DNA of 51,889 nucleotides from an uncultured Candidatus Saccharibacteria bacterium (GTDB lineage: Bacteria; Patescibacteriota; Minisyncoccia; Portnoybacterales; UBA2143): NCBI GenBank assembly GCA_964403725.1, contig CAYOHI010000001.1, positions 46,091 through 97,979 on the forward strand, read 5' to 3'. The notes beneath the pieces are model-generated. The model saw nothing but the letters and a program-made list of their open reading frames with translations, was not told the origin of the DNA and did not search any database. Every line of letters begins with the position of its first letter. Positions within the stretch are counted from its first letter, which is position 1. Below are positions 7,156-48,893 of the stretch, piece after piece. The translations under genes were made by a program, and so were the position numbers.

Positions 7156-7230
7156 GGTCACCAAGGAGACTCGAACTCCCAACCAATCGCGCCACAAGCG
7201 ATCGCTCTTGCCAATTGAGCTATGGTGACC
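7156..7230 (-). tRNA. tRNA-His (anticodon GTG) with genome-encoded G-1
   Basis: The reverse complement folds as a cloverleaf: G(-1)+GTCACCA acceptor, TA, GCTC/GAGC D-stem, ATCGC-TTGTGGC-GCGAT anticodon arm (GTG), GGGAG-TTCGAGT-CTCCT T-arm, TGGTGAC and C73 pairing with G-1. CCA is not encoded. Confidence 0.9.
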
Positions 7231-27053: not shown

Positions 27054-27850
27054 TAAACACTGAAATGAGGAGCGGTAATCTGAGATATTTCCAGACAAGT
27101 TATCCCTTCTTTTCTGTACCGATTACAGCTGCCAGAACCCCCGTTATGCTCATAAACAACATCTTTTCGAGGGAAACCAGACGCTACGAGACTATCAAAG
27201 ACATCTTTTACATCACTAGGATCATCGCTGCGATCCGTTAAATTAACATCAACACATGTCCCGTTATAATGACAGGGAGACTGATGATTAACTGTTGGAG
27301 GCCAACCTTCAGTCACCCACCAATCAGAACAAGTAGGATCACTGTTGCACCTCGCATAAGCATCATTCAACAAGGTTGCCATAACAGGCGTAATCTTATT
27401 ACTACTACCAGGCTTAACCGGTACTGTCATAGCCACGCAAGTCGGACAGTCAACGCTGTGCTGCATTGGCGGCATCATAGTCACACTTGGCAGGTTAGGA
27501 GATTGATTCTGCAGCAATACGGGATTGATGGTATTAAGGATTAAGTAAGTAGCTAGTCCCAGTACTAATCCAGACAGGGCTCCGGTAATGTAGTCTTTAG
27601 CCTTATCCTTGGAAGTGACTGTGTCTGAGAGCATATAGAGGAATCCTCCATAGACCAGCATGCCCAGTGCTGCTATGCCTACTGCACCCAGTCCTATGAA
27701 GTATATATAGCTCAGATACTGAGGTAATGTGAATGTAGCCATCGAAGTCGCGCCTGGGAGGGTTATCTCTACTTGGTAGCCGGCCAAAGCAAAATTAACA
27801 ACAAAAAAGAGGTTTAATAATATAATTAGTATTAAAACTAATTTTTTCAT
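27044..27850 (-). CDS. T4SS-type pilin module (signal peptide + two TM helices) fused to a Cys-rich C-terminal domain with a LAS/M15 zinc-peptidase-like motif
   Basis: 268 aa. Residues 23-127 are near-identical to residues 25-129 of 41408..41965. The C-terminus carries VTEGWPPTVNHQSPCHYNGTCVDV (H-x7-D spacing as in SxHxxGxAxD) and a distal APHFSV. ATGA overlap with the tyrS stop. Confidence 0.6.
   Translation of the reverse strand: MKKLVLILIILLNLFFVVNFALAGYQVEITLPGATSMATFTLPQYLSYIYFIGLGAVGIAALGMLVYGGFLYMLSDTVTSKDKAKDYITGALSGLVLGLATYLILNTINPVLLQNQSPNLPSVTMMPPMQHSVDCPTCVAMTVPVKPGSSNKITPVMATLLNDAYARCNSDPTCSDWWVTEGWPPTVNHQSPCHYNGTCVDVNLTDRSDDPSDVKDVFDSLVASGFPRKDVVYEHNGGSGSCNRYRKEGITCLEISQITAPHFSVYQR
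27471..27784 (-). repeat. copy 1 of a 314-bp direct repeat (pilin module)
   Basis: Hand alignment to 41580-41893 gives about 20 mismatches in 314 positions. The stretch 27606-27724 is identical to 41715-41833 (119 nt). Confidence 0.9.
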
Positions 27851-29049
27851 AAATTAACCTTAATAAATTTCCTTTTGCCTACTTGGATAATCATTCCCTT
27901 TTTCACTTCAATCTCTTTTTGCCAGTCTTTAACTTTCTGATCATCAATCTTGACTCCACCTTGCTCAACCAATCTTTTAGCTTCTCCTTTACTAGGAGTC
28001 ATCTTTGTTTCTACTAATAAATCTAAAATTTGATGTTTCTTTTTATCTGTCTTGAAAACAGGGATTTCTGTTGGCTTGTCTTTGTCTTTAAATACTTTTT
28101 CAAATTCTTTCTCTGCTTTTTCTGCATCCTTCTTGCTGTAATAAAGAGCAACCAATTCTCTAGCTAACCTCGCTTTGGCATCTCTTGGATTCAATTTATC
28201 AGCCTTCATATCGCTTTCCATTTTTTTAATTTCATCCATATCCACGCTTGTACACAATTCTAATCCTGGAATAATCAAGCCGTCAGACCAAGCCATGACT
28301 TGGCCGAACATTTCATTAGGACTTTCATCTAGGTTAATGATATTGCCTTCTGTCTTACCCATCTTCTTGCCTGATGGATCAGCTAGTAATTTAGTGGTTA
28401 GGACGAATTTTTCTTTGTTTTTAATAGCCTTCATCAAGTCTCTTCCTCTGAGCATATTGAAAGTCTGGTCATTGCCTCCGATTTCCAAATCAACATCCAT
28501 GCCGACACTGTCATAACCTTGGGCTAAAGGATAGAGAAATTCATGCAGATAGATCGGCTCATTATTCTTAATCCTTTCTTGGAACATATCCCTGACCATC
28601 ATCTGCTGAACTGTGAAATTAGAGGCGATTTCAATCAAATCAATAAAGCTCAGCTTATCGCTCCATTCACTGTTGTTCATAACCTTGGCCGGATTCTTTC
28701 CTGAAAAATCCAATATCTTACCAGCTTGTTCCTGATAGAATTCAGAATTCTCAAGAACTTCCTTTCTGGTCATCTTCTTGCGGGCTGCCGTCTTGTCGGT
28801 CGGATCGCCAATCATGCCCGTAAAATCGCCGATCAAGAAAATTACTTCATGGCCTAATCTCTGGAATTGGGCTAATTTCATAATTTGGATAGCATTGCCG
28901 ATATGCAAAGACTTAGCGCTAGGATCAAAACCACAATACAACCTAATTTTCTTATCAGACCTCAATACTTTTTCAAAAGTTTCCCTATCAGGGTAAATAT
29001 TCTCTACCCCACGGGTCAAAACCTCCTTAATTTGTTGTTCTTTATTCAT
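27847..29049 (-). CDS. tyrS: tyrosyl-tRNA synthetase
   Basis: 400 aa from ATG 29049 (MNKEQQIKEVLTRGVENIYPD). HIGH motif SLHIGNA, KMSKS-like KKMGKT and a C-terminal S4 domain (SKGEAKRLVEQGGVKIDDQKV). The track's 88-codon N-terminal extension looks non-coding. Confidence 0.9.
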   Translation of the reverse strand: MNKEQQIKEVLTRGVENIYPDRETFEKVLRSDKKIRLYCGFDPSAKSLHIGNAIQIMKLAQFQRLGHEVIFLIGDFTGMIGDPTDKTAARKKMTRKEVLENSEFYQEQAGKILDFSGKNPAKVMNNSEWSDKLSFIDLIEIASNFTVQQMMVRDMFQERIKNNEPIYLHEFLYPLAQGYDSVGMDVDLEIGGNDQTFNMLRGRDLMKAIKNKEKFVLTTKLLADPSGKKMGKTEGNIINLDESPNEMFGQVMAWSDGLIIPGLELCTSVDMDEIKKMESDMKADKLNPRDAKARLARELVALYYSKKDAEKAEKEFEKVFKDKDKPTEIPVFKTDKKKHQILDLLVETKMTPSKGEAKRLVEQGGVKIDDQKVKDWQKEIEVKKGMIIQVGKRKFIKVNL

Positions 29050-29116
29050 AATATTGCCCTTATCTACTGATATATTAAATATATCACCCTTGATAAAAAT
29101 AAGCAATTCTGTCAAA

Positions 29117-31648
29117 ATGTATAATATGTTAATAAGAAGTGGAAAAGTAGTAAGAACATTTATCAAAATCTTAATATTCCTAATACTAATCGGTTTCCTT
29201 TTTGGAATCGGCGTTTTAGCATATTTTGCCAAAGATCTACCAGATCCGACTAAGATCGACGAACGGCAAGTCGTAGAATCGACCAAAATATATGACAGGA
29301 CTGGCCAAGTCATCCTTTATGATATCCATGGCGAAGAAAAAAGAACCATTATTCCTTTTGAAGATATCCATCAGCACGTCAAAGACGCCACTATTGTCGC
29401 TGAAGACGATAATTTCTACCACCATATCGGCATAGATTGGCGGGGTATTATTAGATCTTTTATCGCCAACTTTAGGAATAGTAGAATTTCACAAGGCGCT
29501 TCGACTATCACCCAGCAATTCATTAAAAATGCATACTTAGGTGGCCCTCAGGCAGAAAGGACGTATACCCGTAAAATTAAGGAAGTGATTCTATCAGTCA
29601 TTATGGAAAGAAAGTATTCCAAGGATGAAATCCTAGGATTCTACTTAAATCAAGTCCCATACGGCTCAAACGCCTATGGCATTGAAGCAGCAGCTCAGAC
29701 TTTCTTCAATAAATCAGCTAAAGAATTGAATTTGGCTGAAACCAGCCTTTTAGCTGCTCTGCCTAACGGCCCAAGCTATTACTCCCCTTACGGATCCCAC
29801 CCTGAAGAATTAAAGGAAAGACAAGAATATATTCTGGACAGGATGGTTAAATTCGGATACATCAATAAAGAAGAAGCAGAAAGCGCCAAGCAGGAAGAAT
29901 TAAAATATGCTTCTAAGGGAGATTTGAAAGCGCATCATTTTGTCACCATGATTCAGGAATATTTAGAAGAAGAATACAGCCGAAACTACAGCGATATCAA
30001 TATGGCTGGACTGAAAGTTTATACTACCCTAGATTGGGATCTACAGCAATTAGCTGAAGAGATCATTACAGAAAAAGCGGAAACAAATGAAAAAACCTAC
30101 AGAGCCAGCAATGCGGCTCTAGTCAGCATCGATCCAAAAACAGGACAAGTATTAACTCTGGTCGGATCCAAGAATTACAGTGAGGACCAGTTCAACGTAG
30201 CTACCAGCCCGAACAGGCAACCTGGATCTTCTTTCAAGCCTTTTGCTTACGCTATGGCATTTGAAAAAGGATATAGTCCGGCCAGTATTCTTTTTGATCT
30301 AGAAACGAGCTTTGGCGAATTCGGCCCGGTCGGCGAAGAGAAAGAATACAAGCCGAACAACTATGACTTGAAATTCAGAGGACCGATCAGCATGAGAGAC
30401 TCCTTAGCCCAGTCAGTCAACGTTACTTCAGTTAAAGCCCTTTACTTAGCTGGCGTTAACGATACCATCAATCTAGCCCAGGATATGGGCATCACTACCT
30501 TAAAAGACAGAGGCAGATACAGCCTATCTCTGGTTCTTGGCGGCGGAGAAGTTAAATTAATCGATGAAACGGCAGCTTACGGAGTTTTCGCCACAGAAGG
30601 AACCAGACATCCAACTAAATTAATCTTAAGAATTGAAGATTCCAAGGGAAATATTTTAGAAGAATACGAAGATGATCCAAAGAAAGTTTTAAGCGAACAG
30701 ACAGCCAGGCAGATCAGCGATGTCTTATCGGATGAAGCTGCCAGAATCCCTGTCTTTGGACCTAAGTCAGACCTATACCTATCTGGCCGGCCAGCTGCTG
30801 CCAAAACCGGTACAACTCAAGATTACGCCGATGGTTGGACAATCGGATACACCCCTAGTCTGGTCACTGGCGTCTGGGCTGGGAATAATGATTTTACCGA
30901 TAAGATGAAGCCTGGGGCAGCCGGCCTTTATGTCGCCTCCCCTATTTGGAACGAATTCATGAGTAGAGCTTATGAATTAAAAATTGAAGATAATGATAAT
31001 ACTATTACTGATGAAGAAAATATTATTGAAAACGAATTTTTCTTACCTGAGAAAACAGAACAATTCACTTCTCCGGAACCAGTAGCTAGTAGCACTACGC
31101 CAATGATTAATGGAGAATTGGCATATATGAATAAGGTGAAAATTGACAGGATTTCTGGGAAATTAGCTACTGAACTGACTCCGCCTGATCTGATTACAGA
31201 AAAAACTTACCAGGAAGTCCACTCAATCCTTTACTATATCGACCAAGATGACGAACAATTCAATAATTGGGAACCAGCTGTTCAGACTTGGGTTTCAAGC
31301 CAGTCATGCTCTTCTGGGAATATTTGTTACAATCAAAATCCACCAACTGAATATGACGACATCCATACAAAAGAAAACCAGCCTGATGTAGAAATCACTT
31401 CCCCAATGGAAGATACGACTATTAACGGCTCAAGCTTAACCATTCAAGCTGATGCATTCGCTAAATTAGGAATTAAGCAAGTTGATTTCTTCTTAAACGA
31501 TCAATTAATTGGAACTGATAGAACTCTGCCTTATTCAGTAACTTTTAATCCTATTCCCTATTTAACAGGTGATGAACAAATAATTAAAGTAAGAGCCTAT
31601 GATATGGTTTTAAATAGGCAAGAAGATGAGATTAATGTAGATTATTAA
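29117..31648 (+). CDS. class A penicillin-binding protein (glycosyltransferase + transpeptidase) with a C-terminal Ig-like domain
   Basis: GT51 motifs EDDNFYHHIGID, GASTITQQ and RKIKE. Transpeptidase motifs SSFKP, SVN and KTGT. The last ~90 aa are beta-rich and Ig-like. Start taken at ATG 29117 (MYNMLIRSGK, before the TM helix). Confidence 0.9.
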   Translation: MYNMLIRSGKVVRTFIKILIFLILIGFLFGIGVLAYFAKDLPDPTKIDERQVVESTKIYDRTGQVILYDIHGEEKRTIIPFEDIHQHVKDATIVAEDDNFYHHIGIDWRGIIRSFIANFRNSRISQGASTITQQFIKNAYLGGPQAERTYTRKIKEVILSVIMERKYSKDEILGFYLNQVPYGSNAYGIEAAAQTFFNKSAKELNLAETSLLAALPNGPSYYSPYGSHPEELKERQEYILDRMVKFGYINKEEAESAKQEELKYASKGDLKAHHFVTMIQEYLEEEYSRNYSDINMAGLKVYTTLDWDLQQLAEEIITEKAETNEKTYRASNAALVSIDPKTGQVLTLVGSKNYSEDQFNVATSPNRQPGSSFKPFAYAMAFEKGYSPASILFDLETSFGEFGPVGEEKEYKPNNYDLKFRGPISMRDSLAQSVNVTSVKALYLAGVNDTINLAQDMGITTLKDRGRYSLSLVLGGGEVKLIDETAAYGVFATEGTRHPTKLILRIEDSKGNILEEYEDDPKKVLSEQTARQISDVLSDEAARIPVFGPKSDLYLSGRPAAAKTGTTQDYADGWTIGYTPSLVTGVWAGNNDFTDKMKPGAAGLYVASPIWNEFMSRAYELKIEDNDNTITDEENIIENEFFLPEKTEQFTSPEPVASSTTPMINGELAYMNKVKIDRISGKLATELTPPDLITEKTYQEVHSILYYIDQDDEQFNNWEPAVQTWVSSQSCSSGNICYNQNPPTEYDDIHTKENQPDVEITSPMEDTTINGSSLTIQADAFAKLGIKQVDFFLNDQLIGTDRTLPYSVTFNPIPYLTGDEQIIKVRAYDMVLNRQEDEINVDY

Positions 31649-31670
31649 GATAAATCTTCAAACTAAAAAG

Positions 31671-31693
31671 CGGGGTCATACCCCGCTTTTTTA
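31671..31693. terminator. bidirectional intrinsic terminator (PBP / dnaN)
   Basis: GCGGGGT-CAT-ACCCCGC (31671-31687), flanked by AAAAA and TTTTTT. Confidence 0.8.
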
Positions 31694-31709
31694 ATTCCTT
31701 TAAATAAAC

Positions 31710-32813
31710 TTAAACCTTAATCGGCATAATTACATAAGTATATAATGTGTCGCCCACTGGCCTGGCTACGACAGGCTTTGATTCATCATTTAATCCTAGA
31801 ATTACCTTATCGCTGAAAATATTATTCAATCCGTCTAAGAGATACTTGTAATTAAATATTACTTCCACTTCTTTCCCTGTAATTTCAGCTTCAATTTTTG
31901 ACTTATTCTCACCAATATCAGCATCTTTGGCTAAAACCTCGATAAATGACTTTTTAGGATTGATAGTCATCCTAATATCATTAATCTTTCCACTAAACAA
32001 GCTAGCTACTTTAATATTACTAATCAACTCGCTTCGATCAACAGTAACCTGGGTCTGAAAGCTGCCTGGGATAATCTGTTGATAATCTGGGTATTGTCCT
32101 TCAATAAGCCTTGAAATGACTTGGGCATAGCCTAAATCGAATAAGATTTGGTTACCAGACAGGATCACTTCTACTTCAGTATCTTCTTCCCCTAAGATCC
32201 TGTTAATTTCCTGGATTGTCCTCTGGGGGATAATAATAGATTGAGTTTTAGGCGCTTTTGAGCCATTTATTTCCAAATCTTTTTCTGCTAGGCGAAAACT
32301 ATCCGTTGCCGCTAATTTAATCTTATCCTTATCGAACTTCATGAAAATACCAGATATTTCAGGCCTTGATTCTGATAAGGAAGCCATTTCCACTACTTGA
32401 GAAAAGCCATTCTTCAAAACAATACCTTTGGTTTTCAATAAAGGCTTATCTTTAATCTTAGGAATGATTGGAAAATCATCAGCTGGCAATCCTTTTAAAG
32501 ATGCTTTGAATTTCTTGCATTTAACATCTAGTTGATTACCCTTAGTCTTTAACTCGACTTTTTCATTAGGTAGGTTATTAACAAAATCAGCTAATAGCCT
32601 GGCTGGAATAGTGATACTTCCCTTATCCTGGACTTTCCCGTTAACCCAAGAATTAATGCCGATTTCCAAATTAGTTGAAGATATCTTTAATCTACTTCCC
32701 TCCACTGTTAATAGAAGATTATTTAGGATCGGTAGAGTTAAATTACGACCGATAATCTTCTCAGTAATATTCAATGCTTGTTTTAAATTTTCTTGGAGGC
32801 AAATTATGTGCAT
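31710..32813 (-). CDS. dnaN: DNA polymerase III beta sliding clamp
   Basis: 367 aa with typical N-terminus (LKQALNITEKIIGRNLTLPILNNLLL) and C-terminus (ESKPVVARPVGD..YTYVIMPI). Directly downstream of dnaA. Confidence 0.93.
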   Translation of the reverse strand: MHIICLQENLKQALNITEKIIGRNLTLPILNNLLLTVEGSRLKISSTNLEIGINSWVNGKVQDKGSITIPARLLADFVNNLPNEKVELKTKGNQLDVKCKKFKASLKGLPADDFPIIPKIKDKPLLKTKGIVLKNGFSQVVEMASLSESRPEISGIFMKFDKDKIKLAATDSFRLAEKDLEINGSKAPKTQSIIIPQRTIQEINRILGEEDTEVEVILSGNQILFDLGYAQVISRLIEGQYPDYQQIIPGSFQTQVTVDRSELISNIKVASLFSGKINDIRMTINPKKSFIEVLAKDADIGENKSKIEAEITGKEVEVIFNYKYLLDGLNNIFSDKVILGLNDESKPVVARPVGDTLYTYVIMPIKV

Positions 32814-32959
32814 AAGTTTTTATTTAATAATTAATAATATAAATATTTAAAAAAATTATTATTACTATTAGCCTATCTAAATACGGGGAAAAGTCAATAT
32901 ATTGGGTTAGTAATTGATAATTCTAAATTGTTAAACTGTTAATTTCTCTCTTGTTAATC

Positions 32960-32968
32960 TGTGGATAA
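32960..32968. promoter_or_regulatory. perfect DnaA box
   Basis: TGTGGATAA is the reverse complement of TTATCCACA. It lies in the AT-rich dnaA-dnaN spacer, 20 nt from the dnaA stop. Confidence 0.6.
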
Positions 32969-32988
32969 AATATGAATTATTTTTTGAC

Positions 32989-34350
32989 TTAATTATACAG
33001 TCGTTCTTTAATTAAGTTTAACTCATGTTGGAGAGAATCATTACTCTCTATTTCCTTATTGATTTTTTGACAGGCATACATAACAGTGGTGTGGTCACGG
33101 CCGCCTAATTTCTCTCCGATGTATGGATATGATCCATTTAATTCATTCCTAATCAAATACATACTGATCTGTCTTGGTCTGACTAATTGTTTTTTTCTTG
33201 AATGGGTGAATAGATCATCGAATTTAATGTCATAAAAGTCAGATACAGCTTTGAATATCTTCTTACAATTAGTCATTTTCTTTGGAGTATTGATAATCTG
33301 AGAAAGGATTTTAGGAACATTCTTGACTGTCGGAGTGGTATTGGTAATTTGGGAATGAGCGATTATCCTGTTTAAAGCCCCTTCTAATTCTCTAATATTG
33401 CTTTGGATATTCTTAGCGACATATTCTAAAACGTCTTCTGATACCTTATACTTCTTCTCTTCTGTCTTATTCTTAAGGATAGCCAGTCTTGTCTCTAGAT
33501 CCGGCTGGGATATGTCAGCGATCATTCCTCCTTCAAATCTAGACCTTAGCCTGTCTTCTAAAGTTGAAATAGCTTTAGGCGGTCTATCGGAGCTAATGAT
33601 AATCTGCTTATTCTTTTGGTATAGGGCATTGAAAGTATTGAAGAATTCTTCCTGAGTTTTTTCCTTGCCAGCGATGAATTGAATATCATCAATAATCAGG
33701 GTATCGATCTTATGATATTTCTTCTTAAAGGCTTCCATTCCTCTATTACGCAAGGCATCAACCAATTCACCAGTGAATTTTTCAGAACTCAAGTATTTAA
33801 CCTTCTTATTCTTATCTTTCTTAGATAATTCATTTCCAATTGCCTGGAGTAAATGGGTTTTTCCCAAACCGACTCCGCCATAAATAAAAAGGGGGTTGTA
33901 TAAAGTACCAATATGTTTGGTTACCCCCTTGCCAGCTGCTTGAGCTAATTCATTAAAAGATCCAATAATGAAATTATCAAAAGAATATTTAGGATTTAAA
34001 TTAGTTTCTTTGTTAAGATTGAATTCTTGGAAATTCAATTGGCTGTCTATCTGATTGGGTTTTGTCTTCTTTTTTGTTTTGGTATTACTTACAGTTACAG
34101 CTTCATTACCACCGATAACGAATTTTATTTCCTTAACATCAGGTGAATTATTTCTAAGAATCTTAAGAATCAGCTTATTATACTTATTCTCCAACCATTC
34201 TTTAGTAAAGCCATTAGGAGCGCTTACTGTAATCATTCCATCTTTCTTGGAATGGATTTTAGTATTCCTGAACCAAGTAATGAAACTGGCTTTGGATATA
34301 GTTAACTCAACCTCCCCTAAAACAGTTTGCCAAAGATTTTTTAAGTTCAT
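32989..34350 (-). CDS. dnaA: chromosomal replication initiator DnaA
   Basis: 453 aa with Walker A GGVGLGKTHLL, Walker B LIIDDIQF, and sensor and DNA-binding region GGRDHTTVMYACQKI. Confidence 0.96.
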   Translation of the reverse strand: MNLKNLWQTVLGEVELTISKASFITWFRNTKIHSKKDGMITVSAPNGFTKEWLENKYNKLILKILRNNSPDVKEIKFVIGGNEAVTVSNTKTKKKTKPNQIDSQLNFQEFNLNKETNLNPKYSFDNFIIGSFNELAQAAGKGVTKHIGTLYNPLFIYGGVGLGKTHLLQAIGNELSKKDKNKKVKYLSSEKFTGELVDALRNRGMEAFKKKYHKIDTLIIDDIQFIAGKEKTQEEFFNTFNALYQKNKQIIISSDRPPKAISTLEDRLRSRFEGGMIADISQPDLETRLAILKNKTEEKKYKVSEDVLEYVAKNIQSNIRELEGALNRIIAHSQITNTTPTVKNVPKILSQIINTPKKMTNCKKIFKAVSDFYDIKFDDLFTHSRKKQLVRPRQISMYLIRNELNGSYPYIGEKLGGRDHTTVMYACQKINKEIESNDSLQHELNLIKERLYN

Positions 34351-34429
34351 AAAGATAACAGATTAGTAATTTAGACTTATTGTATCATAATAGCAGAAAA
34401 TTCAAAACAACTCAATTTTGTTAATAAGC

Positions 34430-34449
34430 TGTGGATGAAATGTGGAATA
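34430..34449. promoter_or_regulatory. two adjacent degenerate DnaA-box-like sites upstream of dnaA
   Basis: TGTGGATGA (34430-34438, one mismatch) and TGTGGAATA (34441-34449, two mismatches). The flanking TTGTTAAT..CTGTGGAT context is repeated at 32951-32968. Confidence 0.4.
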
Positions 34450-34479
34450 TTTTCGGGTTAATTATTAGAAATATGAAGA

Positions 34480-34508
34480 TTGACTTTATGATTATGAGAT
34501 GCTATTCT
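34480..34508 (+). promoter_or_regulatory. sigma70-like promoter for rpmH
   Basis: TTGACT (34480-34485), 17-nt spacer, TATTCT (34503-34508). The -10 ends 7 nt before the rpmH ATG. Confidence 0.4.
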
Positions 34509-34515
34509 GGAATAT

Positions 34516-34650
34516 ATGTCGCAAACATATAATCCAAAAAAGAAGAAAAGAAAAAAGACTCATGGATTCAAAGCAAGGATGGCCACTTCGTATGGTCGTC
34601 GTGTTTTATCCAAAAGAAGAGCTAAAAAACGGAAGAAACTAACTGTTTAA
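34516..34650 (+). CDS. rpmH: 50S ribosomal protein L34
   Basis: Too short for the ORF track. My translation is [44 protein letters not shown] (44 aa), the classical L34 sequence. Divergent from dnaA and upstream of rnpA. Confidence 0.92.
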
Positions 34651-34675
34651 AGTTAGTCATTTTTTAATTTAAAAT

Positions 34676-35017
34676 ATGTTGTCTCGAGAATATAAATTAA
34701 AAAGGGATAATGATTTCAAGAAAGTATTCAATGAAGGAAAGTATTATCGAGATAATTTTATTGGAATCAAATATTTGAAAAATGACTTAGAGTTCAGCCG
34801 TTTTGCTTTTATAGTTGGATTAAAAATTTCAAAAAAAGCTGTAGTAAGAAACAGAGTTAAGCGTCGGCTTGAAGAAATAGTTAGATTGAGTTTAGATCAG
34901 ATTAAGAAAGGTTTTGATATTGTAGTTATGGTTGAATCTCAGATAATCAAGGAGGATTACCAAAAGATAGAAAGTGAGCTTGTTAATGTGCTTGAGAAAA
35001 ATAAATTAATTAACTAA
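34676..35017 (+). CDS. rnpA: RNase P protein component
   Basis: 113 aa with the RNR motif VVRNRVKRRLEEIVR, in rpmH-rnpA-yidC order. Confidence 0.9.
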   Translation: MLSREYKLKRDNDFKKVFNEGKYYRDNFIGIKYLKNDLEFSRFAFIVGLKISKKAVVRNRVKRRLEEIVRLSLDQIKKGFDIVVMVESQIIKEDYQKIESELVNVLEKNKLIN

Positions 35018-35018
35018 T

Positions 35019-35738
35019 ATGGATCTTATAATAACTATTTTCAATGAAAGCCTTTACCGTCCTTTGTTTAACGCCTTGGTTTGGCTTTATAATATAATTC
35101 CCGGAAACGACTTAGGTATCGCTATTATTGTCTTAACAGTAATAATCAGATTAATTCTCTATCCTTTATCCAAAAAAGCGATTCAATCGCAAAAAGCGAT
35201 TAATAAATTGCAGCCTAAAATGAAAGAGATTCAGAAGAAATATAAGAACAAGGAAGAACAGGCCAAAGCGATGATGGAGTTGTATCAGAAGCATAAGGTA
35301 AATCCGATGGCCGGTTGCTTGCCAATATTAATCCAATTGCCTCTTTTGATTGCTTTGTACCAAGTTTTCATTAATGGATTAAAGCCAGAGGCATTAAGCG
35401 CCTTATACAGCTTCATCCCGAGTCCAGAATCATTGAATGTAATGTTTTTAGGATTAATCGATCTCTCTCAAAGAAATATTTTCTTGGCATTATTAGCCGG
35501 TTTCTTCCAATTCATCCAGTCTAAGATGATTATGCCAAAGAATTTAAATACTAAGAAAGGCAAATCTGACAGTATGGATTTCGCATCGATAATGAGCAAG
35601 CAAATGCTGTATTTCATGCCTTTAATCACTATTTTTATTGCTTGGAGTCTGCCGGCTGCCCTACCTCTCTATTGGATAGTAATCACCTTATTCGGCATCC
35701 TGCAGCAACACACCACTAAAAGCGAAATTAAAAATTAA
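35019..35738 (+). CDS. yidC: membrane protein insertase YidC (short, Gram-positive-type)
   Basis: 239 aa with GIAIIVLTVIIRLILYPL, KVNPMAGCLPILIQLPLLIALY and PAALPLYWIV. Confidence 0.9.
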   Translation: MDLIITIFNESLYRPLFNALVWLYNIIPGNDLGIAIIVLTVIIRLILYPLSKKAIQSQKAINKLQPKMKEIQKKYKNKEEQAKAMMELYQKHKVNPMAGCLPILIQLPLLIALYQVFINGLKPEALSALYSFIPSPESLNVMFLGLIDLSQRNIFLALLAGFFQFIQSKMIMPKNLNTKKGKSDSMDFASIMSKQMLYFMPLITIFIAWSLPAALPLYWIVITLFGILQQHTTKSEIKN

Positions 35739-35748
35739 ATTTAAACAT

Positions 35749-36201
35749 ATGGATAAGACAAATATTATTAAAGATACAATCAAAGAATTATTAGAAGCTA
35801 TGAAATTTGATGGAAATATTGCAGTTGATAATCCGCAATCAGACAGCGTTTTGGTTAATGTCCAGACTGAGCAAGCAGGTTTCTTGATTGGTCAAGCTGG
35901 CGCTAATCTGGATGCTTTGCAGCATATTGCCAGGATTCTAGTGAATAAGAAGAATGAAGAACCGGTTCCATTTGTCTTAGATGTGAATAATTATCGCAAA
36001 CACAGGATAGATCTTTTGAAAGATTTAGCTGAGAATATGGCTCGTCAAGCTTTGACAGAAAAAGTGGCTCTGACTCTTCAGCCAATGTCCGCCTATGAAA
36101 GACGAGTTATTCATTTGGCTTTAGTTGATAAGCCAGAGGTAAGTACTGAAAGTGTTGGCTCTGATCTAGAAAGAAGAATAGTTATTAAACCTGTTAAATA
36201 G
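35749..36201 (+). CDS. jag: Jag/KhpB RNA-binding protein (KH + R3H)
   Basis: 150 aa. GFLIGQAGANLDALQHI is KH-like and MSAYERRVIHLAL is R3H. Located downstream of yidC. Confidence 0.85.
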   Translation: MDKTNIIKDTIKELLEAMKFDGNIAVDNPQSDSVLVNVQTEQAGFLIGQAGANLDALQHIARILVNKKNEEPVPFVLDVNNYRKHRIDLLKDLAENMARQALTEKVALTLQPMSAYERRVIHLALVDKPEVSTESVGSDLERRIVIKPVK

Positions 36202-36225
36202 TTTTTATTCATAAGAATAAAAACC

Positions 36226-36504
36226 ATGCTTATTAAAGCTAAAAAAATCATTAATAATAAAGTTGTTACTAGAAGCGGACAACCGCTTGGTAGAGTGGTT
36301 GATTTTGAGGTGGATACTTCCGGCCAGAGAATCGTTAAGTATCATACCCATCAAGACCTGCTTGGTTTTCTGAAGGAGCCATTAATTATTGATGCCGCTC
36401 AAGTTGTTGATATTAAGGATGATGAATTAATCGTTGAAGACGGCTTAGTTTCTCAAAAAATAAGTAAAAAGAAAACAACATCAGACGTAGAATATGTTAG
36501 GTAG
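36226..36504 (+). CDS. PRC-barrel domain protein
   Basis: 92 aa. KVVTRSGQPLGRVVDFEVDTSGQRIVKY is a typical PRC-barrel pattern. Confidence 0.6.
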   Translation: MLIKAKKIINNKVVTRSGQPLGRVVDFEVDTSGQRIVKYHTHQDLLGFLKEPLIIDAAQVVDIKDDELIVEDGLVSQKISKKKTTSDVEYVR

Positions 36505-37897
36505 AAAAATTGCTTTTAATACTATTATCTCAGCTGGGGCTAGGATTATCGGACTAGCCCTTTCTTTAGTCATAATTGGTCTGATTTCTCGATATCTGGG
36601 CCAGGATGGATTTGGGTATTACTCAACTATCTTGGCTTTTTTGTTTTTCTTCAATTCTTTAGCTGATCTGGGCCTTTATTCCATTTGCCTAAGAGAAATA
36701 TCAAGACCCAAAGCAGATGAGGTGAAAGTAATTAGCAATGCTTTTACTCTGAAATTCGTATCTGGTCTGTTTATTTTTGCCCTGTCTCCTATTATTGTTT
36801 ATCTTTTTCCATATCCGGTTGAAGTTAAAGTTGGAGTTTTGATCGGAGCGGTTGGTTTCTGGCTAATGTCTAATCAACATGTTTTAATAGGTATTTTCCA
36901 GAAGTATCTGAGAATGGATAAAGTAGCTTTGGCTGAAGTGATGGGCCGTTTAGTTCAATTAGGATTGGTCCTGTTTTTCGTTAAATATGACTTTGATTTT
37001 CTATATATAGTCAGCGCTTTGGTTTTCGGTTCTTTGGTTAATTTCATTCTGCTCTTTTTATTCGGTCAGAAATATATTCGTATTTCATTTGAATTTGATT
37101 TTAAATTCTGGAAATCTTTACTGAAGGAATCTCTTCCTTTAGCTTTGGCTATTGTCTTTACGATGATCTATTTCAAAGTAGATACAATTATGCTTTCTCT
37201 GATGAAGCCGGTAGCTGATGTAGGGATTTATAATCTGGCTTACAAGTTCTTGGAGAGTCTATTGTTCTTCCCGGCAATGTTTGTCGGCTTGGTCATGCCT
37301 CTGATGTCTGAATATGCTTTTTCAGCTAAAAAGAAATTCAGGAAGATAATCCAGAGGACATCGGATATTTTGTTGATTTTTGCTATTCCTATGGTTATTG
37401 GAGTTATCTTTCTCTCTGAAAATATTGTTGTTCTGATAGCTGGGCCTGATTTCATCCTTTCAGCTGGGGTTTTGAATATTCTGATTGTTGCTGCTGGGAT
37501 TATTTTCCTAGGCGTCCTTTTCTCTAATATGATTATCGTTTTAAAGAAACAAAAGAGCCTGACTTATATTTATGGAGCTGGGGTAATTGTTAATTTGATA
37601 GCCAATTATATTTTTATTCCTAAGTATTCATATTACGGGGCTGCTTGGACAACTCTTTTAACTGAATTAATTGTTACTATTTTAATGCTGTTTGTGATTA
37701 AGAATATTCCTTCTTTTAGGTTTGTTTATAAGTATGTATTGGCTGGTTTGGTTATGGCTCTGGTTTTGTATTATTTCTCTAGCTTGCCTCTGTTTGTTTT
37801 GATTATCCTGTCGATCTTTGTCTATTTTGGCGTTCTGTTCTTAATTAAAGGTTTTTCTGGCAGAGAGGTCTTATACTTAATTAAAAAAGATGTTTAA
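36494..37897 (+). CDS. MOP/Wzx-type polysaccharide flippase
   Basis: 467 aa with about 12-14 TM helices and N-terminus KIAFNTIISAGARIIGLALSLVIIGLISRYLG, typical of polysaccharide biosynthesis (Wzx) proteins. Confidence 0.75.
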   Translation: MLGRKIAFNTIISAGARIIGLALSLVIIGLISRYLGQDGFGYYSTILAFLFFFNSLADLGLYSICLREISRPKADEVKVISNAFTLKFVSGLFIFALSPIIVYLFPYPVEVKVGVLIGAVGFWLMSNQHVLIGIFQKYLRMDKVALAEVMGRLVQLGLVLFFVKYDFDFLYIVSALVFGSLVNFILLFLFGQKYIRISFEFDFKFWKSLLKESLPLALAIVFTMIYFKVDTIMLSLMKPVADVGIYNLAYKFLESLLFFPAMFVGLVMPLMSEYAFSAKKKFRKIIQRTSDILLIFAIPMVIGVIFLSENIVVLIAGPDFILSAGVLNILIVAAGIIFLGVLFSNMIIVLKKQKSLTYIYGAGVIVNLIANYIFIPKYSYYGAAWTTLLTELIVTILMLFVIKNIPSFRFVYKYVLAGLVMALVLYYFSSLPLFVLIILSIFVYFGVLFLIKGFSGREVLYLIKKDV

Positions 37898-39140
37898 CTG
37901 GATCCTTCTCTTAGTTAACTACCTCCCCTTTCAGATAGCTCTGAATCCAAGGGTCGGTTTTGATTTGTCTTCCTTGCGCGTATTTATTCTGCTGTTATTT
38001 ATTTTTTCCTTAATAGAAATCTATTTAAAGAGAAAAAATCTTTACAATCTTCAATTTGCAGGATTGTTTTTGTTTTTAATCTTATCTGGCGTTTCTCTAT
38101 TCGGGGCAGAGAATATTTCCTGGGGATTGAGGAAAGTATTGTTCTTTGTCTCTGTTTTTCCCATGTATCTTTTAATTTTGTTTTTTGTTAATAATTATTT
38201 GAAGACTGATAAGATTATTAGGTTTTTATATATTTCTACGGGCTTATTTGCTTTTATTGGTTTAATTCAGTTCTTATCTCAATTTGTATTCAGTTTAGAG
38301 AGAGTTTATGAATTCTGGTCAATAAATGTCTTGCCGATTTTTTCCGGTTTTAATCTAGGGTCTATGATTTTAGCTTATCCTAGTTGGCTGGTTAATGTGG
38401 GAGGAGAGACGATAATGAGGGCTTTTTCTTTGTTTTCTGATCCCCATATGTTTTCTTTTTACTTAGGCTTGGTTTTGCCATTTTTTGTTTTTCTTTATTT
38501 CAAGGGGTTTAATAGGGTTGTTTTATATTCTATATATTTCTTAATATTCATTACTTTAACACTTACTTTTACAAGAGGTGCTTATTTGGCTATTATTATC
38601 ACTTTTTCTGCATTATTTCTTCTTTTATGGTGGATCAAAGAGAAGAAATTGGCTCTTTTGTTCATTTTATCATTATTGATTTTCATTATTCCGATTACTC
38701 CTGTTTCAGATAGGTTTTATTCATCTTTTGATTTAGATGAAGGCTCTAATGTAGGGAGATTGGAAATGTGGCAGCAGGCTGGAGAAACTGGGTTTGATTA
38801 TTTCTTCTCGGGTGTCGGTTTGGGTAATTATTCGCTTTCAGTCAATTCTGAACTTGATTACCGTAATCCTGTCACTGCTCATAATTTGTATCTGGATATT
38901 TTTTCTGAAATGGGCATATTTGCTCTATTAATCTTATTAATCCTTATTATTGGCACTATTTATCATTTATTTAAGAGAATTAATGGGGATAATGGTTATT
39001 TAGTTATTTCTTTAATTGGCTCACTAGTATATTTCTTGGTTCATAGTGTTTTTGAAACGGCTATTTACAGCCCGAGCGTTTTAGCTCTCTTAATGGTAAT
39101 TTTGGGGCTCTCATCATATGTTACAAAAGATAATCGATAA
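37890..39140 (+). CDS. O-antigen ligase/polymerase-like (Wzy_C domain) membrane protein
   Basis: 416 aa, polytopic. Central TFTRGAYLAII and the loop ...GRLEMWQQA...FFSGVGLGNY...AHNLYLDIFSEMG match the Wzy_C signature. Confidence 0.75.
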   Translation: MFNWILLLVNYLPFQIALNPRVGFDLSSLRVFILLLFIFSLIEIYLKRKNLYNLQFAGLFLFLILSGVSLFGAENISWGLRKVLFFVSVFPMYLLILFFVNNYLKTDKIIRFLYISTGLFAFIGLIQFLSQFVFSLERVYEFWSINVLPIFSGFNLGSMILAYPSWLVNVGGETIMRAFSLFSDPHMFSFYLGLVLPFFVFLYFKGFNRVVLYSIYFLIFITLTLTFTRGAYLAIIITFSALFLLLWWIKEKKLALLFILSLLIFIIPITPVSDRFYSSFDLDEGSNVGRLEMWQQAGETGFDYFFSGVGLGNYSLSVNSELDYRNPVTAHNLYLDIFSEMGIFALLILLILIIGTIYHLFKRINGDNGYLVISLIGSLVYFLVHSVFETAIYSPSVLALLMVILGLSSYVTKDNR

Positions 39141-40266
39141 TTTAATTTATTTGATAGTTTTCTCTCTGCCTCTATATCTGGTTAGTTTCAAGGTTTTTTG
39201 GGTGCCTTTTAATATTTTGGAAATATTGATCTGTGTTTTATTTATCTTTTGGGCTTTTAATTTTAAGGATAGATCTTTGTTCAATTCAAAGATTTTCTTG
39301 CCAATATTATTGATTCTTGTTGGTATAACTGTTTCTGTTTGGGTTTCAAATGATTTAGAGGTTAGTGCTGGCATCTGGAAGGGTTGGTTTATTGTTCCGA
39401 TGCTGTTTTTTATAGTACTTATTGACCGGGTTAAGAAAAGAGATCAGGTTAACAGGATTATTGTTAGCTTAACTTTATCGGGTTTAGTTGTGGCCTTAAT
39501 ATCTCTTTGGTATTGGTTGAGTGGCAATTTGACCTATGATGGAAGATTAAGCGGATTTTATCTTTCAGCTAATTTCTTAGCTATGTATTTGTCCCCTATC
39601 TTAATATTATCCCTGTATTTATTTTCTGTCTTTAAGGAGAGAAAATACAGGATAGGTCTGTTGTTTGTCTATTTTCTATTATCTTTTGTAATCTATTTGA
39701 CTTATTCTTATGGCGCTTGGCTGGGTCTTCTGATAGCTTTTCTTTTTATCTTATTAAAACAAAAAAACAAGAAAATCCTATTGATATTTTCTTTGTTGGT
39801 TATTCTGGTTTCTGTTATCCAGATTCCTAGTTACAAGTTTCAGGGTTTTTTGGATTTGTCTTATCCTTCTCTGCAGTCGCGCTTGGTTATTTGGCAAAGC
39901 GCTTTTGAAATATTGAAAGATAATCTTGTCTTTGGTATTGGACTGGGCATGTTTCAGGAATATTACTTGGCATATCAGGATATGTTTTTGCCTTATCCTG
40001 AATGGGCCGTACCCCAGCCTCATAATATTTTCTTGGCTTTCTGGCTGCAGGCTGGATTATTGGGCTTTGTCGGCTTTGTCTGGCTGTTAGTATATTTCTT
40101 TAAAAAAACAAACCCCAGTCATGTGCTAGGGTCTGTTCTAATAGGTCTTATGGTCTATATCTTAATTCACGGTCTGATTGATACCACTTATTTCAAAAAT
40201 GACTTATCAGTAATATTCTGGCTTGTTATAGCTCTAGGCTATAAAGCAGATTATCTGGCTGATTGA
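39118..40266 (+). CDS. second O-antigen ligase/polymerase-like (Wzy_C domain) membrane protein
   Basis: 382 aa, polytopic. SRLVIWQSAFEI...FGIGLGMF...PHNIFLAFWLQAGLLG. It overlaps the preceding gene by 23 nt. Confidence 0.75.
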   Translation: MLQKIIDNLIYLIVFSLPLYLVSFKVFWVPFNILEILICVLFIFWAFNFKDRSLFNSKIFLPILLILVGITVSVWVSNDLEVSAGIWKGWFIVPMLFFIVLIDRVKKRDQVNRIIVSLTLSGLVVALISLWYWLSGNLTYDGRLSGFYLSANFLAMYLSPILILSLYLFSVFKERKYRIGLLFVYFLLSFVIYLTYSYGAWLGLLIAFLFILLKQKNKKILLIFSLLVILVSVIQIPSYKFQGFLDLSYPSLQSRLVIWQSAFEILKDNLVFGIGLGMFQEYYLAYQDMFLPYPEWAVPQPHNIFLAFWLQAGLLGFVGFVWLLVYFFKKTNPSHVLGSVLIGLMVYILIHGLIDTTYFKNDLSVIFWLVIALGYKADYLAD

Positions 40267-41380
40267 CGAAAATCAGGTAATCTTCCAAAGGAGGTAAGAT
40301 TAATTCCTCTACATTATATATCTTTGTCTCTCCGAGTCCCTGGACTTCAAATATCTTAGTCATTTCTTCTGTTTCTAGGTTGATTCTCCAGAATTCATCA
40401 TTAAATGAAACTTTTTCTTTGTAATAGTCATCTGGCATGACAGCATCGTTGGAGATATTCTTCGGAATAGCGCAGAAAATCGTCCGGTTATCCTGGCTCC
40501 AGATGCATTTCTCTACTAAAGTGACAACATTTAACTCGCTAACAGTCTGGCCATCTAGGTCAGCTATTTTTAATTTCAGATTCTTGCCGTCACTGTCCGT
40601 TTCTGAATAAAGTATCTTATCCCCCATAGGTGACCATAAGGCTGATAAACCATAGGTTTCGTTGATAATTTTTTGGAAATCTCCAGTTGTTGGATTAATG
40701 ACATAGACTACGCTTTCAACAAGGCCGCTAGGCTTGTTTCTGATTGATACCTTATTGGCTACTGGCCACTCTACGATTAAATCCTTCATCCTTGTTTGGA
40801 AGATGGATTCCCAATTCGATCCATCTGGGTTAGCAATGCTGATATTGTTATCCTCAGTAACGGAATTATAGTATTGGTAAGCTATTTTGCTCTGATTTGG
40901 CGACCAGGTTACCCAGCGGACCTCTCCGAGTAAAGGAGTTGATATTTTCGTGTTGTAGTCATAAAGATATTTCTTAATCAATCCATTTTCATCAAAAAGA
41001 GCAATAACTTTATCCTTATCAGGAGACCAGATAGCTTTGATTAGATCACTTAGAACAATAGATGATGTTCTGGTCAGCTCAGCGCCATCAAGGTCCGATT
41101 CGAATACATTACCATTGCTTTTCGAGTAGTACCTGACTTTTTTACCATCTGTAACAGGACTCAAGACTGCCTCTTGGGAAATTTGTTTGAGTTTTCCTTC
41201 AATAGGAGTGTTATTTATTGGATCCGTGCTTGGATCAGAGATCGGTATCTGGCTGGGGTCGTCTGTTGTCGCAGTCGGGTCTGTTTCTTCGTCAGAAGAA
41301 AAGTAATTGTACGCGACCAGACCGGTAATGACCATAACCAAGGCTATTATTAGAATGATGAATATTTGTTTAAGTGACAT
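40226..41380 (-). CDS. membrane-anchored TolB-like beta-propeller (PD40 repeats)
   Basis: 384 aa with an N-terminal TM helix and repeated W-S-P motifs (IWSPDKDKV, VTWSPNQSKIAYQ, ALWSPMGDKILYS, CIWSQDNRTIF). Last gene of the T4SS-like operon. Confidence 0.65.
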   Translation of the reverse strand: MSLKQIFIILIIALVMVITGLVAYNYFSSDEETDPTATTDDPSQIPISDPSTDPINNTPIEGKLKQISQEAVLSPVTDGKKVRYYSKSNGNVFESDLDGAELTRTSSIVLSDLIKAIWSPDKDKVIALFDENGLIKKYLYDYNTKISTPLLGEVRWVTWSPNQSKIAYQYYNSVTEDNNISIANPDGSNWESIFQTRMKDLIVEWPVANKVSIRNKPSGLVESVVYVINPTTGDFQKIINETYGLSALWSPMGDKILYSETDSDGKNLKLKIADLDGQTVSELNVVTLVEKCIWSQDNRTIFCAIPKNISNDAVMPDDYYKEKVSFNDEFWRINLETEEMTKIFEVQGLGETKIYNVEELILPPLEDYLIFVNQPDNLLYSLEL

Positions 41381-41407
41381 ATATTTTTATTAATTAGTAT
41401 TTTGAAA

Positions 41408-41965
41408 TTATCTAGGTATACAGCAGCAAACGTTTGTGTTTGGCGGAGTGCAAAGTCCCTTTAGAGCAGCACAATCCGTAGCACAGTTTCCTGTAGTTCC
41501 ACCTTTTTTATGGAGATCAGTACATGCTGATGCTGATATAGGAGCGCAGATTTGGGGTGAAGGCGGAGCGGGCGGAGATGGCATCATAGTCACACTTGGC
41601 AGGTTAGGTGATTGATTCTGCAACAGTACAGGATTGATAGTATTAAGGATTAAGTAAGCTGCTAGTCCTAGTACTAATCCAGATAGAGCTCCGGTAATGT
41701 AGTCTTTAGCCTTGTCCTTGGAAGTGACTGTGTCTGAGAGCATATAGAGGAATCCTCCATAGACCAGCATGCCCAGTGCTGCTATGCCTACTGCACCCAG
41801 TCCTATGAAGTATATATAGCTCAGATACTGAGGCAATGTGAATGTAGTTGTTGGAGTTGTACCTGGGAGGGTTATCTCTACTTGGTAGCCGGCTGCCTGG
41901 ACATTAAAACAAATGAATAGCGAGAATGCTGCAATGATTAATATTTTTTTAAATTTTAAATTCAT
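41408..41965 (-). CDS. T4SS-type (VirB2/TrbC-topology) pilin with a Cys-rich C-terminal extension
   Basis: 185 aa with signal peptide ...NVQAAG and two hydrophobic helices separated by SDTVTSKDKAKDY. Then a PSPPAPPSPQ linker and a tail with 9 Cys ending VCCCIPR. Confidence 0.65.
   Translation of the reverse strand: MNLKFKKILIIAAFSLFICFNVQAAGYQVEITLPGTTPTTTFTLPQYLSYIYFIGLGAVGIAALGMLVYGGFLYMLSDTVTSKDKAKDYITGALSGLVLGLAAYLILNTINPVLLQNQSPNLPSVTMMPSPPAPPSPQICAPISASACTDLHKKGGTTGNCATDCAALKGLCTPPNTNVCCCIPR
41580..41893 (-). repeat. copy 2 of the 314-bp direct repeat (pilin module)
   Basis: See 27471..27784. The offset between copies is exactly 14,109 bp, in the same orientation. Confidence 0.9.
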
Positions 41966-41968
41966 ATT

Positions 41969-43068: not shown

Positions 43069-43072
43069 GGTT

Positions 43073-45512: not shown

Positions 45513-45513
45513 A

Positions 45514-45798: not shown

Positions 45799-45800
45799 AT

Positions 45801-46301: not shown

Positions 46302-46309
46302 AATTTATA

Positions 46310-48199: not shown

Positions 48200-48208
48200 T
48201 TATATATA

Positions 48209-48889: not shown

Positions 48890-48893
48890 ATAT

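Follow-up and report, generated by a model that had tools for sequence, protein, structure and literature searches.

The subject of this analysis is a 51,889-nt stretch of DNA, referred to here as the window, from an uncultured Candidatus Saccharibacteria bacterium placed by GTDB in Portnoybacterales (contig CAYOHI010000001.1, positions 46,091 to 97,979). Two minus-strand genes of the window, labeled A and B, encode pilins of the VirB2/TrbC type belonging to a type IV secretion system (T4SS) and share a nearly identical module of 105 codons in front of unrelated C-terminal ends. The similarity of the two modules is well supported as the result of non-reciprocal recombination (gene conversion) and not of ordinary divergence. 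The explanation considered probable as a whole is that B is the native pilin of a T4SS gene cluster, while A is a chimera that has been overwritten by the module of B via gene conversion and that carries a predicted peptidase as its C-terminus. A also gives access to what is apparently a large and undescribed family of T4SS pilins fused to a Hedgehog/DD-peptidase-like domain with intact catalytic residues. Open reading frame (ORF) predictions, the repeat search and the search for hidden copies covered the 51.9-kb window. The comparisons use contigs from other samples (L001 and L002) and loci of relatives or other genomes (L003, L007, L008, L013/14, L025 and L026), and P0003 denotes the pilin of the closest relative.

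Evidence for gene conversion

An earlier reading of the window, made without database searches and referred to as the sequence-only reading, had described a 314-bp repeat on one strand with about 20 mismatches, an offset of 14,109 and a 119-nt identical core. This description is confirmed by MAFFT, a repeat finder and blastn, with the minus strand as the strand concerned. The blastn alignment of the two copies (Table 1) contains 20 mismatches in 314 positions and no gaps (93.6% identity), its coordinates are also reproduced with MAFFT, and the repeat finder detects no direct-repeat family in the window other than this one (300 nt, 93%, spacing 14,109). Read in frame, the shared tract consists of 105 codons (AGYQVEITLPG...PSVTMMP), in which 21 of 315 nt differ between A and B. 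The amino-acid differences had been described as limited to ATSMA versus TTPTT and one T/A, and the codon comparison agrees: 13 codons carry synonymous differences only, and there are five amino-acid changes, four of them in ATSMA/TTPTT and one T/A. Similarity begins at GCCGGCTACC and stops at ...ATGATGCC, with sharp edges at both junctions. Outside these limits A and B are unrelated, as had also been noticed, both in the n/h regions of the signal peptides upstream and in everything after TMMP downstream.

The alignment with dN/dS that had been proposed as a check gives a synonymous divergence (dS) of 0.22, a non-synonymous divergence (dN) of 0.024 and a ratio (omega) of 0.11 for A versus B over the module. 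When the window is compared with its closest known relative, dnaA, dnaN, virB4, yidC and the pilin all show saturation at synonymous sites (dS from 1.3 to infinity). Divergence between A and B is also unevenly distributed along the tract, with a dS of 0.35 in the first 20 codons, no change at any of 30 synonymous sites in a 39-codon core and a dS of 0.41 in the last 46 codons. The identical run of 119 nt, which encodes helix 1 and the loop of the pilin module, has a probability of about 6e-4 if the differences are placed evenly, or about 1.4e-3 at the codon level. In the same core, B and its orthologue P0003 differ at 29 of 29 synonymous sites with only three non-synonymous changes, so the core is free of constraint at the nucleotide level. 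Such a constraint, for example from an embedded RNA, was considered as an explanation for the identical run and rejected, since synonymous change is saturated there between B and the orthologue.

The module and the C-terminal domain of A also yield conflicting trees, in which the module groups with B and the domain with distant Hedgehog-domain pilins. The orthologue calibration, the mosaic tract, the sharp boundaries and the conflicting trees together argue for conversion, and the proposal that the module is kept uniform in this way stands on these grounds. The simplest reading is that at least two non-reciprocal transfers took place, an older one over the whole tract and a recent one over the core.

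A separate observation concerns the mature N-terminus, where 8 of the 21 differences are packed into 14 nt (27740-27755 and 41849-41864, tract codons 10-15) and account for ATSMA versus TTPTT. This segment is hypervariable across the pilin family too, and it could be a patch that escapes conversion or one under diversifying selection.

The two copies had been placed on either side of dnaA and the origin, and this holds as well. The copies enclose dnaN (31710-32813), dnaA (32989-34350), rnpA, yidC and jag, together with the dnaA/rnpA spacer. In that spacer, at about 34 kb, the cumulative GC skew reaches its minimum, and DnaA-box matches at 32960 (perfect), 34430 and 34606 flank dnaA. Because of this skew turn and these boxes, the probable origin is put about 7 kb from each repeat copy.

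Gene A and its C-terminal domain

In the tree of modules, A is sister to B within a clade of short Cys-tailed pilins, with 99% identity over the hairpin core. The modules of all other Hedgehog-domain pilins are 24-58% identical to that of A, and their Hedgehog-like domains are 34-47% identical to the domain of A. A module close to that of A was found in none of 150 Hedgehog-like domain representatives. Scans anchored on tyrS and a TyrRS search found no A gene after tyrS in relatives with conserved dnaA-dnaN-PBP-tyrS synteny (PBP, penicillin-binding protein). Neither a close homologue of the C-terminal domain nor an orthologue of A was found in a database of 5.8 billion proteins, and a scan of GTDB genomes with protein A returned no relative. 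From these comparisons, A is a lineage-specific chimera of the module of B and a Hedgehog/DD-peptidase-like domain. The start codon of A overlaps the stop codon of tyrS (ATGA), and A is therefore probably co-expressed with tyrS.

The C-terminal domain was compared with known structures at the level of profile, model and residue. A profile of the domain matches Sonic hedgehog (Shh) in the PDB with E=8e-7, and the Shh, Ihh and Dhh signaling domains in general at about 1e-6; the HMMER alignment to hedgehogs runs through 'RVTEGW..HH...LHYEGRAVD...YYE', zinc motif included. The AlphaFold2 (AF2) model of the domain has a pLDDT of 94.5 and a pTM of 0.88. In a Foldseek search of the PDB with this model, Hedgehog N-domains take the first 38 places (probability 1.0, TM about 0.53, root-mean-square deviation about 2.5 Å, about 100 columns), and next come MepA and LdcB, two LAS peptidases that act on peptidoglycan.

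Conservation within the family falls on the residues expected of a zinc peptidase of this fold. An alignment of the last 138 residues of A with about 20 long family members has E51, H59, C63, C69, D71 and E104 invariant and H64, G67, T68, H132 and F133 nearly so (numbered within that segment). Across 150 diverse representatives, E51, H59, C63, C69, D71, E104 and H132 are 100% conserved and H64 is 97% conserved. The conserved residues correspond to Shh E127, H135, H141, D148, E177 and H183. In the numbering of A, the predicted zinc ligands are H194, D201 and H262, the predicted catalytic residues are E234 and H189, and C193 and C199 are conserved. The H-x6-D motif, CH(194)YNGTCVD(201), aligns with Shh H141 and D148, its His being present in 146 of 150 representatives and its Asp in all 150. 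The His of 'APH(262)FSV' is also present in 150 of 150; the HMMER alignment ends just before it, and its match to Shh 'IH183CSV' was made by manual extension. E234 ('VYE') and H189, found in every one of the 150 representatives, align with Shh E177 and H135, the latter a helper His known from the 1VHH structure. The roles of the other Shh residues, the zinc ligands and the catalytic E177, have been described (PMC6027127). On the basis of conservation and modeling, the C-terminal domain of A is predicted to be an active zinc peptidase.

The surroundings of A provide several further observations. Its signal peptide (27785-27850; …NFALAGYQ) is closer to that of the short-pilin subclade P0008-P0013 (…HFALAGYK) than to that of B (…NVQAAGYQ), which hints that the 5' end of A has yet another origin, in a segment too short and too simple in sequence to carry much weight. 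The slot between tyrS and the ATP-grasp genes varies between genomes. It holds A here, whereas in L007 (8828-14184) it holds 5.3 kb of unrelated genes before an orthologous RimK-like ATP-grasp gene, namely a radical-SAM protein, a methyltransferase, an apparent small toxin-antitoxin pair (read from translations) and a DHODH-like fusion. L008 and L013/14 differ again at this slot, and synteny stops there in L008 and L013. In the window, two adjacent ATP-grasp genes (RimK/GSH-synthase-like; 24519-27053, plus strand) converge on A, the second overlapping its 3' end by 10 nt. These two genes may form a peptide-ligase pair, and no link between them and the pilin was found.

Gene B and the T4SS cluster

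The sequence-only reading had seen a pilin leader and two-helix module in front of two unrelated C-termini. That architecture stands, and the module is here refined to that of a VirB2/TrbC-type T4SS pilin (PF18895). In B, a signal peptide precedes two hydrophobic helices that form a hairpin around a short charged loop, and A contains the same sequence. In the AF2 model of B, helices span residues 3-24 (signal peptide), 44-78 and 83-110, with a pLDDT of 89-94 in the hairpin. Among aligned homologues, 60 of 66 match PF18895 (T4SS_pilin) at E<=1e-3, the best at 5e-9, and B has a weak match to NCBIfam NF045849, a pilin-like conjugal-transfer family. Both A and B are classified as T4SS pilins and not as pilins of type IV pili; the latter assignment was rejected, as neither a prepilin motif nor a signal peptide of class III is present and the surroundings are those of a T4SS.

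B is two genes away from a VirB4-like ATPase, in an order that is the same in L003, L025 and L026. In the closest known relative the gene order is identical, running from the T4SS cluster through the pilin (P0003), a protein of about 384 aa, two Wzy-like proteins, a flippase, jag, yidC, rnpA, rpmH, dnaA and dnaN to PBP. B is the pilin of the cluster and an ordinary family member; it looks native because it matches the orthologues at the protein sites where A and B differ. A is not inside the cluster and lies 14 kb off, beside tyrS. The 56-residue tail of B, with eight Cys, has no relation to the C-terminus of A or to the tails of the closest orthologues of B, and Pfam and NCBIfam scans returned nothing usable for it. 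The T4SS of Patescibacteria is described as monoderm-type, with VirB2-like pilins beside virB4, often near dnaA, and with VirB1 mostly missing (Microb Genom 2025, PMC12102498). In S. epibionticum, the one member of the Patescibacteria that has been tested genetically, epibiotic life requires the T4SS and its pilins (Cell 2023, PMC10633639).

Distribution and modularity of the family

An exhaustive profile search with the Hedgehog-like domain of 1.84 billion representatives recovers 1,080 proteins at E<=1e-3, 829 of them at E<=1e-10. A pilin module precedes the domain in 140 of the top 150 representatives, and most of the remaining 10 are short fragments. L025 and L026, two other genomes that were examined, have a pilin-Hedgehog-like gene in the exact slot held by B in the window, in the order VirB4, two small genes, pilin, a gene of about 390 aa and further on yidC, rnpA, dnaA, dnaN, PBP and tyrS. 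The same chromosomal pilin slot thus holds different C-terminal ends in different lineages, Hedgehog-like in L025 and L026 and Cys-rich here. A limited literature search found no description of a pilin-peptidase or pilin-Hedgehog fusion in the Candidate Phyla Radiation.

Across the family, modules and tails have clearly been recombined. Near-identical modules carry unrelated tails in P0025/P0026 (95%), P0007/P0015 (93%) and P0009/P0341 (92%), similar tails occur on modules only 67% identical in P0018/P0026, and about 19 of 69 family members have essentially no tail. These combinations of like modules with unlike tails and like tails on unlike modules mark the junction between module and tail as a recurrent recombination point across the family. 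The family had been proposed to be polymorphic, and between genomes it is, with unlike tails on like modules and a slot that holds either Cys-rich or Hedgehog-like ends. The suggested search for the module with other C-termini found no third copy in the window, whereas family members in other genomes do carry other tails.

Alternative explanations

A single recent partial duplication, in which the 5' part of B was fused once to a Hedgehog-like gene beside tyrS and has undergone plain divergence since, is judged unlikely. Only two copies exist, the overall dS of 0.22 would be a plausible age for one event, and an initial illegitimate fusion is needed anyway, as the modules of typical Hedgehog-domain pilins are too divergent for homologous exchange. 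The duplication nevertheless sits poorly with the lack of change at the 30 synonymous sites of the core against a dS of 0.35-0.41 in its flanks, and the orthologue comparison leaves no nucleotide-level constraint that could account for the difference. It also disregards the regular pairing of the Hedgehog-like domain with a pilin module, by which the ancestor of A probably had a module of its own.

Horizontal acquisition is considered improbable. Here A would be the pilin of a T4SS cluster from some sister strain or sister species, landed beside tyrS, and the identity of about 93% would be orthologous, with no exchange within the genome. The variability of the tyrS/ATP-grasp slot between relatives, the use of Hedgehog-domain pilins as cluster pilins in other lineages and the presence of two related populations in one sample (L001 and L003 are both from SCRA20-1) are all compatible with such an event. 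The abrupt ends of the similarity, with unrelated signal peptides and unrelated sequence after TMMP, are unlike what orthologues of 93% identity would display. No Hedgehog-domain pilin with a short-clade module was found among the 1,080 representatives or the database matches, and the 119-nt identical core would be left unexplained.

A system of antigenic or phase-variation cassettes like pilE/pilS of Neisseria, where an expression locus receives copies of stored variant segments, comes to mind from the polymorphic, surface-exposed ends of this pilin family, from the conversion between the two copies and from the arrays of variable VirB2 paralogues reported in Patescibacteria (PMC12102498). 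As an explanation of the window it is very improbable. Exchange affects the conserved module instead of the variable end, a search of the 52-kb window revealed no partial copies lacking a promoter and excludes a third hidden copy, and neither copy varies between the window and the one other assembly that contains it. The description of the module as cassette-like is accordingly not upheld within the genome, where the window and the database of 5.8 billion proteins yield two copies only, both of them complete and apparently expressed genes with their own starts and signal peptides.

An assembly artefact, with one copy or the hybrid A produced by a chimeric join or a collapsed repeat, is hardly credible even for a metagenome, where short-read assemblers can be misled by repeats of some 300 nt, given the 21 diagnostic differences between the copies, an identical core of only 119 nt, junctions that are in frame on both sides, complete ORFs, contigs of 17.8 kb and 83 kb that each appear to carry both genes, and contigs from other samples that reproduce each copy separately. 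Of these, L001 (SCRA20-1 scaffold_2738) covers copy A and L002 (SUTE22-1 scaffold_225) covers copy B; both are 99.98% identical to the window, flanks included, and each carries the diagnostic bases of its own copy. Single-nucleotide differences from the window occur only at 24701, 35315, 36305 and 37462, with none in either copy. Separately, the last 88 nt of L001 (13170-13257) mismatch the window at about 24594-24682, with the break inside a 505-aa ATP-grasp ORF (24519-26036), which reflects either a strain-level rearrangement or a contig-end artefact.

Several points weigh against the conversion of A by B and the assignments built around it. With only two copies known, the case for repeated conversion draws on how unevenly 21 differences are distributed in a single gene pair, and the identical run was tested after the sequence-only reading had pointed it out. 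If the ancestral module was only about 35-55% identical, ordinary homologous conversion does not account for how a B-type module came to be joined to the distant Hedgehog-like domain in the first place, and an illegitimate fusion may have preceded conversion. For the P0003 genome, that of the closest relative, the lack of an A gene was judged only from its absence among database matches. Both pilins of the window score just under the Pfam cutoff for PF18895 (26.6 bits, with 25.2 for B and 20.3 for A). With the pilin hairpin, Foldseek gives generic helical matches only (best E 0.79) and a profile search of the PDB gives no match, the bare hairpin being too simple for such tests. In the C-terminal domain family, a single His is found where classical DD-peptidases have H-x-H, the first His being absent, and the calcium-site residues of Hedgehog are missing, so that Shh 'EGWDEDG' reads 'EGWPPTV' in A and only the equivalent of E127 is kept. 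No Pfam or NCBIfam model matches the domain, including HH_signal and Peptidase_M15; of 20 family members just two touch HH_signal, with E values no better than 0.07. Because of the single His, the missing calcium site and the lack of detection by Pfam and NCBIfam, the domain is treated as a separate subfamily within the Hedgehog/DD-peptidase (LAS) fold, one that is absent from the catalogues.

Proposed mechanism

In the gene-conversion explanation, A and B would be paralogous VirB2-like pilins of a chromosomal, monoderm-type T4SS in a Portnoybacteria-like member of the Patescibacteria. The 105-codon membrane-insertion and polymerization module of B would overwrite that of A by non-reciprocal homologous recombination, and would have done so at least twice, over the whole 315 nt in the older event and over at least the 119-nt core in the recent one. 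A crossover between the direct repeats would instead release a 14.1-kb circle with oriC, dnaA, dnaN, rnpA, yidC, tyrS and PBP and leave the chromosome without an origin. The earlier argument that crossing-over would remove dnaA, dnaN and the origin therefore appears sound, and only non-crossover products should persist. The repeat could thus be stable and yet homogenized, because crossovers between copies that flank the origin would not survive.

Selection may retain the conversions, because the shared module would give the peptidase-bearing A the same signal-peptide cleavage, membrane insertion and T4SS docking and polymerization interface as the major pilin. In VirB2 and TraA, both termini face outward. 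By this topology the C-terminal domain of A would face outward as well, on the surface of the cell or of the pilus, and the conserved Cys pairs of the domain fit an extracytoplasmic location. An outward LAS peptidase could cut peptide stems in the wall of its own cell, in place of the usually missing VirB1, or in the wall of a host.

Comparison with known systems

The cluster resembles the MPF-FATA-like T4SS of Patescibacteria, whose pilins (PF18895) lie by virB4, TrsD and PrgI-like genes in clusters near dnaA, dnaN and rnpA, and as in those systems (PMC12102498; PMC10633639) no relaxase is seen in the window. Published pilin arrays of Patescibacteria are tandem and at most 54% identical, whereas the two genes here are separated by 14 kb, with the origin between them, and have a module in common with 95% protein and 93% DNA identity. 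C-terminal extra domains on T4SS pilins are not mentioned in PMC12102498. Peptidoglycan hydrolases of T4SS, namely VirB1 and the monoderm PrgK, TraG and CwlT (PMC12102498), resemble A in that a predicted wall-cutting enzyme is genetically tied to the T4SS; unlike them, A would be a LAS metallopeptidase fused to a pilin and not a separate lytic transglycosylase or CHAP subunit.

The C-terminal domain is like Hedgehog proteins and DD-peptidases (LAS, MEROPS M15A-like) in its fold, in its H-x6-D motif, with a distal His as the predicted third zinc ligand, and in its catalytic Glu and His. Rhizobial bacterial Hedgehog proteins (Roelink 2018, PMC6027127) carry their C-terminal domain behind N-terminal membrane helices, as A does. 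The domain of A is about 25% identical to Hedgehog, however, against more than 50% for the bacterial Hedgehog proteins described (PMC6027127). Unlike members of the Hedgehog and LAS groups, A has a single His for H-x-H, WPPT for the calcium-site WDEDG and a T4SS pilin as carrier. Its family also differs from Hedgehog in having two additional conserved Cys that flank the zinc His, and an insert of 20-30 residues before the last His.

Conversion and concerted evolution of paralogues are known in bacteria, for example in tufA/tufB and the rRNA operons, and conversion between pilin genes is known from pilE/pilS of Neisseria. A and B share with such cases a far closer relation between paralogues than between orthologues, sharp boundaries, mosaic divergence and the viability of non-crossover products only. 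They differ in that the converted part is a sub-genic module of proteins with different C-termini and in that the repeats bracket the origin. Neisseria pilE/pilS is the opposite of A/B, where the conserved part is homogenized.

Features of the window

The positions of the features are collected in Table 1.

Table 1. Coordinates of the two pilin genes, their shared module and associated features in the window
Feature	Position	Strand	Basis
Gene A, 268 aa: signal peptide, B-type pilin module, Hedgehog/LAS-like zinc peptidase domain (predicted)	27044-27850	-	ORF, translation, Pfam; same gene in independent assembly L001
Residues 131-268 of A (C-terminal domain), with a LAS fold like that of Hedgehog N-domains and DD-peptidases	27047-27460	-	PDB profile, AF2, Foldseek, conservation
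Repeat copy A: last part of the signal peptide, mature N-terminus, hairpin of two helices, beginning of the linker	27471-27784	-	Alignment, repeat finder, codon comparison, blastn
119-nt core, identical to 41715-41833	27606-27724	-	Identical-run and synonymous-site analysis
tyrS, immediately upstream of A, probably coupled to it in translation	27847-29049	-	Synteny, start context
dnaN, dnaA and dnaA/rnpA spacer (probable oriC), between the two copies	31710-34675		Pfam labels, GC skew, DnaA boxes
Gene B, 185 aa: pilin module behind a signal peptide, then a Pro-rich linker and a tail rich in Cys (8 Cys)	41408-41965	-	ORF, Pfam, orthologue P0003 in same slot, AF2
B-specific tail, residues 130-185	41411-41578	-	Sequence comparison
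Repeat copy B: same shared pilin module	41580-41893	-	Alignment, repeat finder, codon comparison, blastn
Rest of T4SS cluster: p136, VirB4-like, TrsD/TraC-like, weak VirB6/TrbL-like, unknowns, TSP3-repeat protein	42658-51733	-	Pfam, NCBIfam; order kept in L003
VirB4-like ATPase	43073-44875	-	Pfam/NCBIfam
TrsD/TraC-like protein	44868-45512	-	Pfam/NCBIfam
Weak VirB6/TrbL-like match (E 0.57); L003 orthologue with 'weak' TrbL match	46310-48199	-	Pfam/NCBIfam

The T4SS cluster including B (41408-51733, minus strand) is transcribed toward the probable origin and head-on to the replication fork, whereas A is co-directional; the orientation relative to dnaA is the same in the relatives examined (L003, L025 and L026). 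A protein of about 385-400 aa directly follows the pilin gene in every cluster examined (window 40226-41380; L003 10519-11670; L025 10852-12018; L026 10863-12083). It has a weak match to TolB-like beta-propellers and no match to a Pfam family, and it looks like an unrecognized conserved T4SS component. At the far end of the cluster is a 324-aa protein with bacterial thrombospondin type-3 (TSP3, calcium-binding) repeats (50759-51733), with a counterpart kept in the relative L003 (444-1418). Between the T4SS cluster and the origin, at 36494-40266, a polysaccharide flippase and two Wzy_C (O-antigen-ligase-like) proteins are found, which are kept in L003 and L025, and this surface-glycan module may travel with the T4SS. 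Elsewhere, the window contains a tmRNA gene (4680-5059, tag AAPAYAVA*) and tRNA-His(GTG) (7155-7229).

Implications

The window provides a clean natural case of sub-genic conversion, in which an assembly module is kept alike in proteins with different ends. Its geometry is part of the case, since repeats that bracket oriC, dnaA and dnaN should make any crossover lethal. The T4SS context, the Hedgehog/LAS-type C-terminus of A and the origin of A as a lineage-specific chimera go beyond what the sequence-only reading had described, and the more interesting result, the family of pilin-peptidase fusions, lies outside its framing. This family adds a populous bacterial branch to the Hedgehog/DD-peptidase family and bears on the debate over a bacterial origin of the Hedgehog N-domain.

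The family is also a concrete candidate for the missing VirB1 activity and for a function directed at the host wall. A broader idea, possible and put forward only tentatively, is that T4SS pilins serve as modular display scaffolds, with a conserved module, swappable outward payloads and a wall-cutting pilus. If so, the payloads would be a Hedgehog-type zinc peptidase, Cys-knot tails or nothing at all, and recombination at the junction would reshuffle them between lineages. Conversion would then keep the peptidase-bearing minor pilin co-polymerizable with the major pilin, and the pilus would carry its own wall-cutting enzyme, which would replace VirB1 and perhaps breach the host wall during epibiotic attachment.

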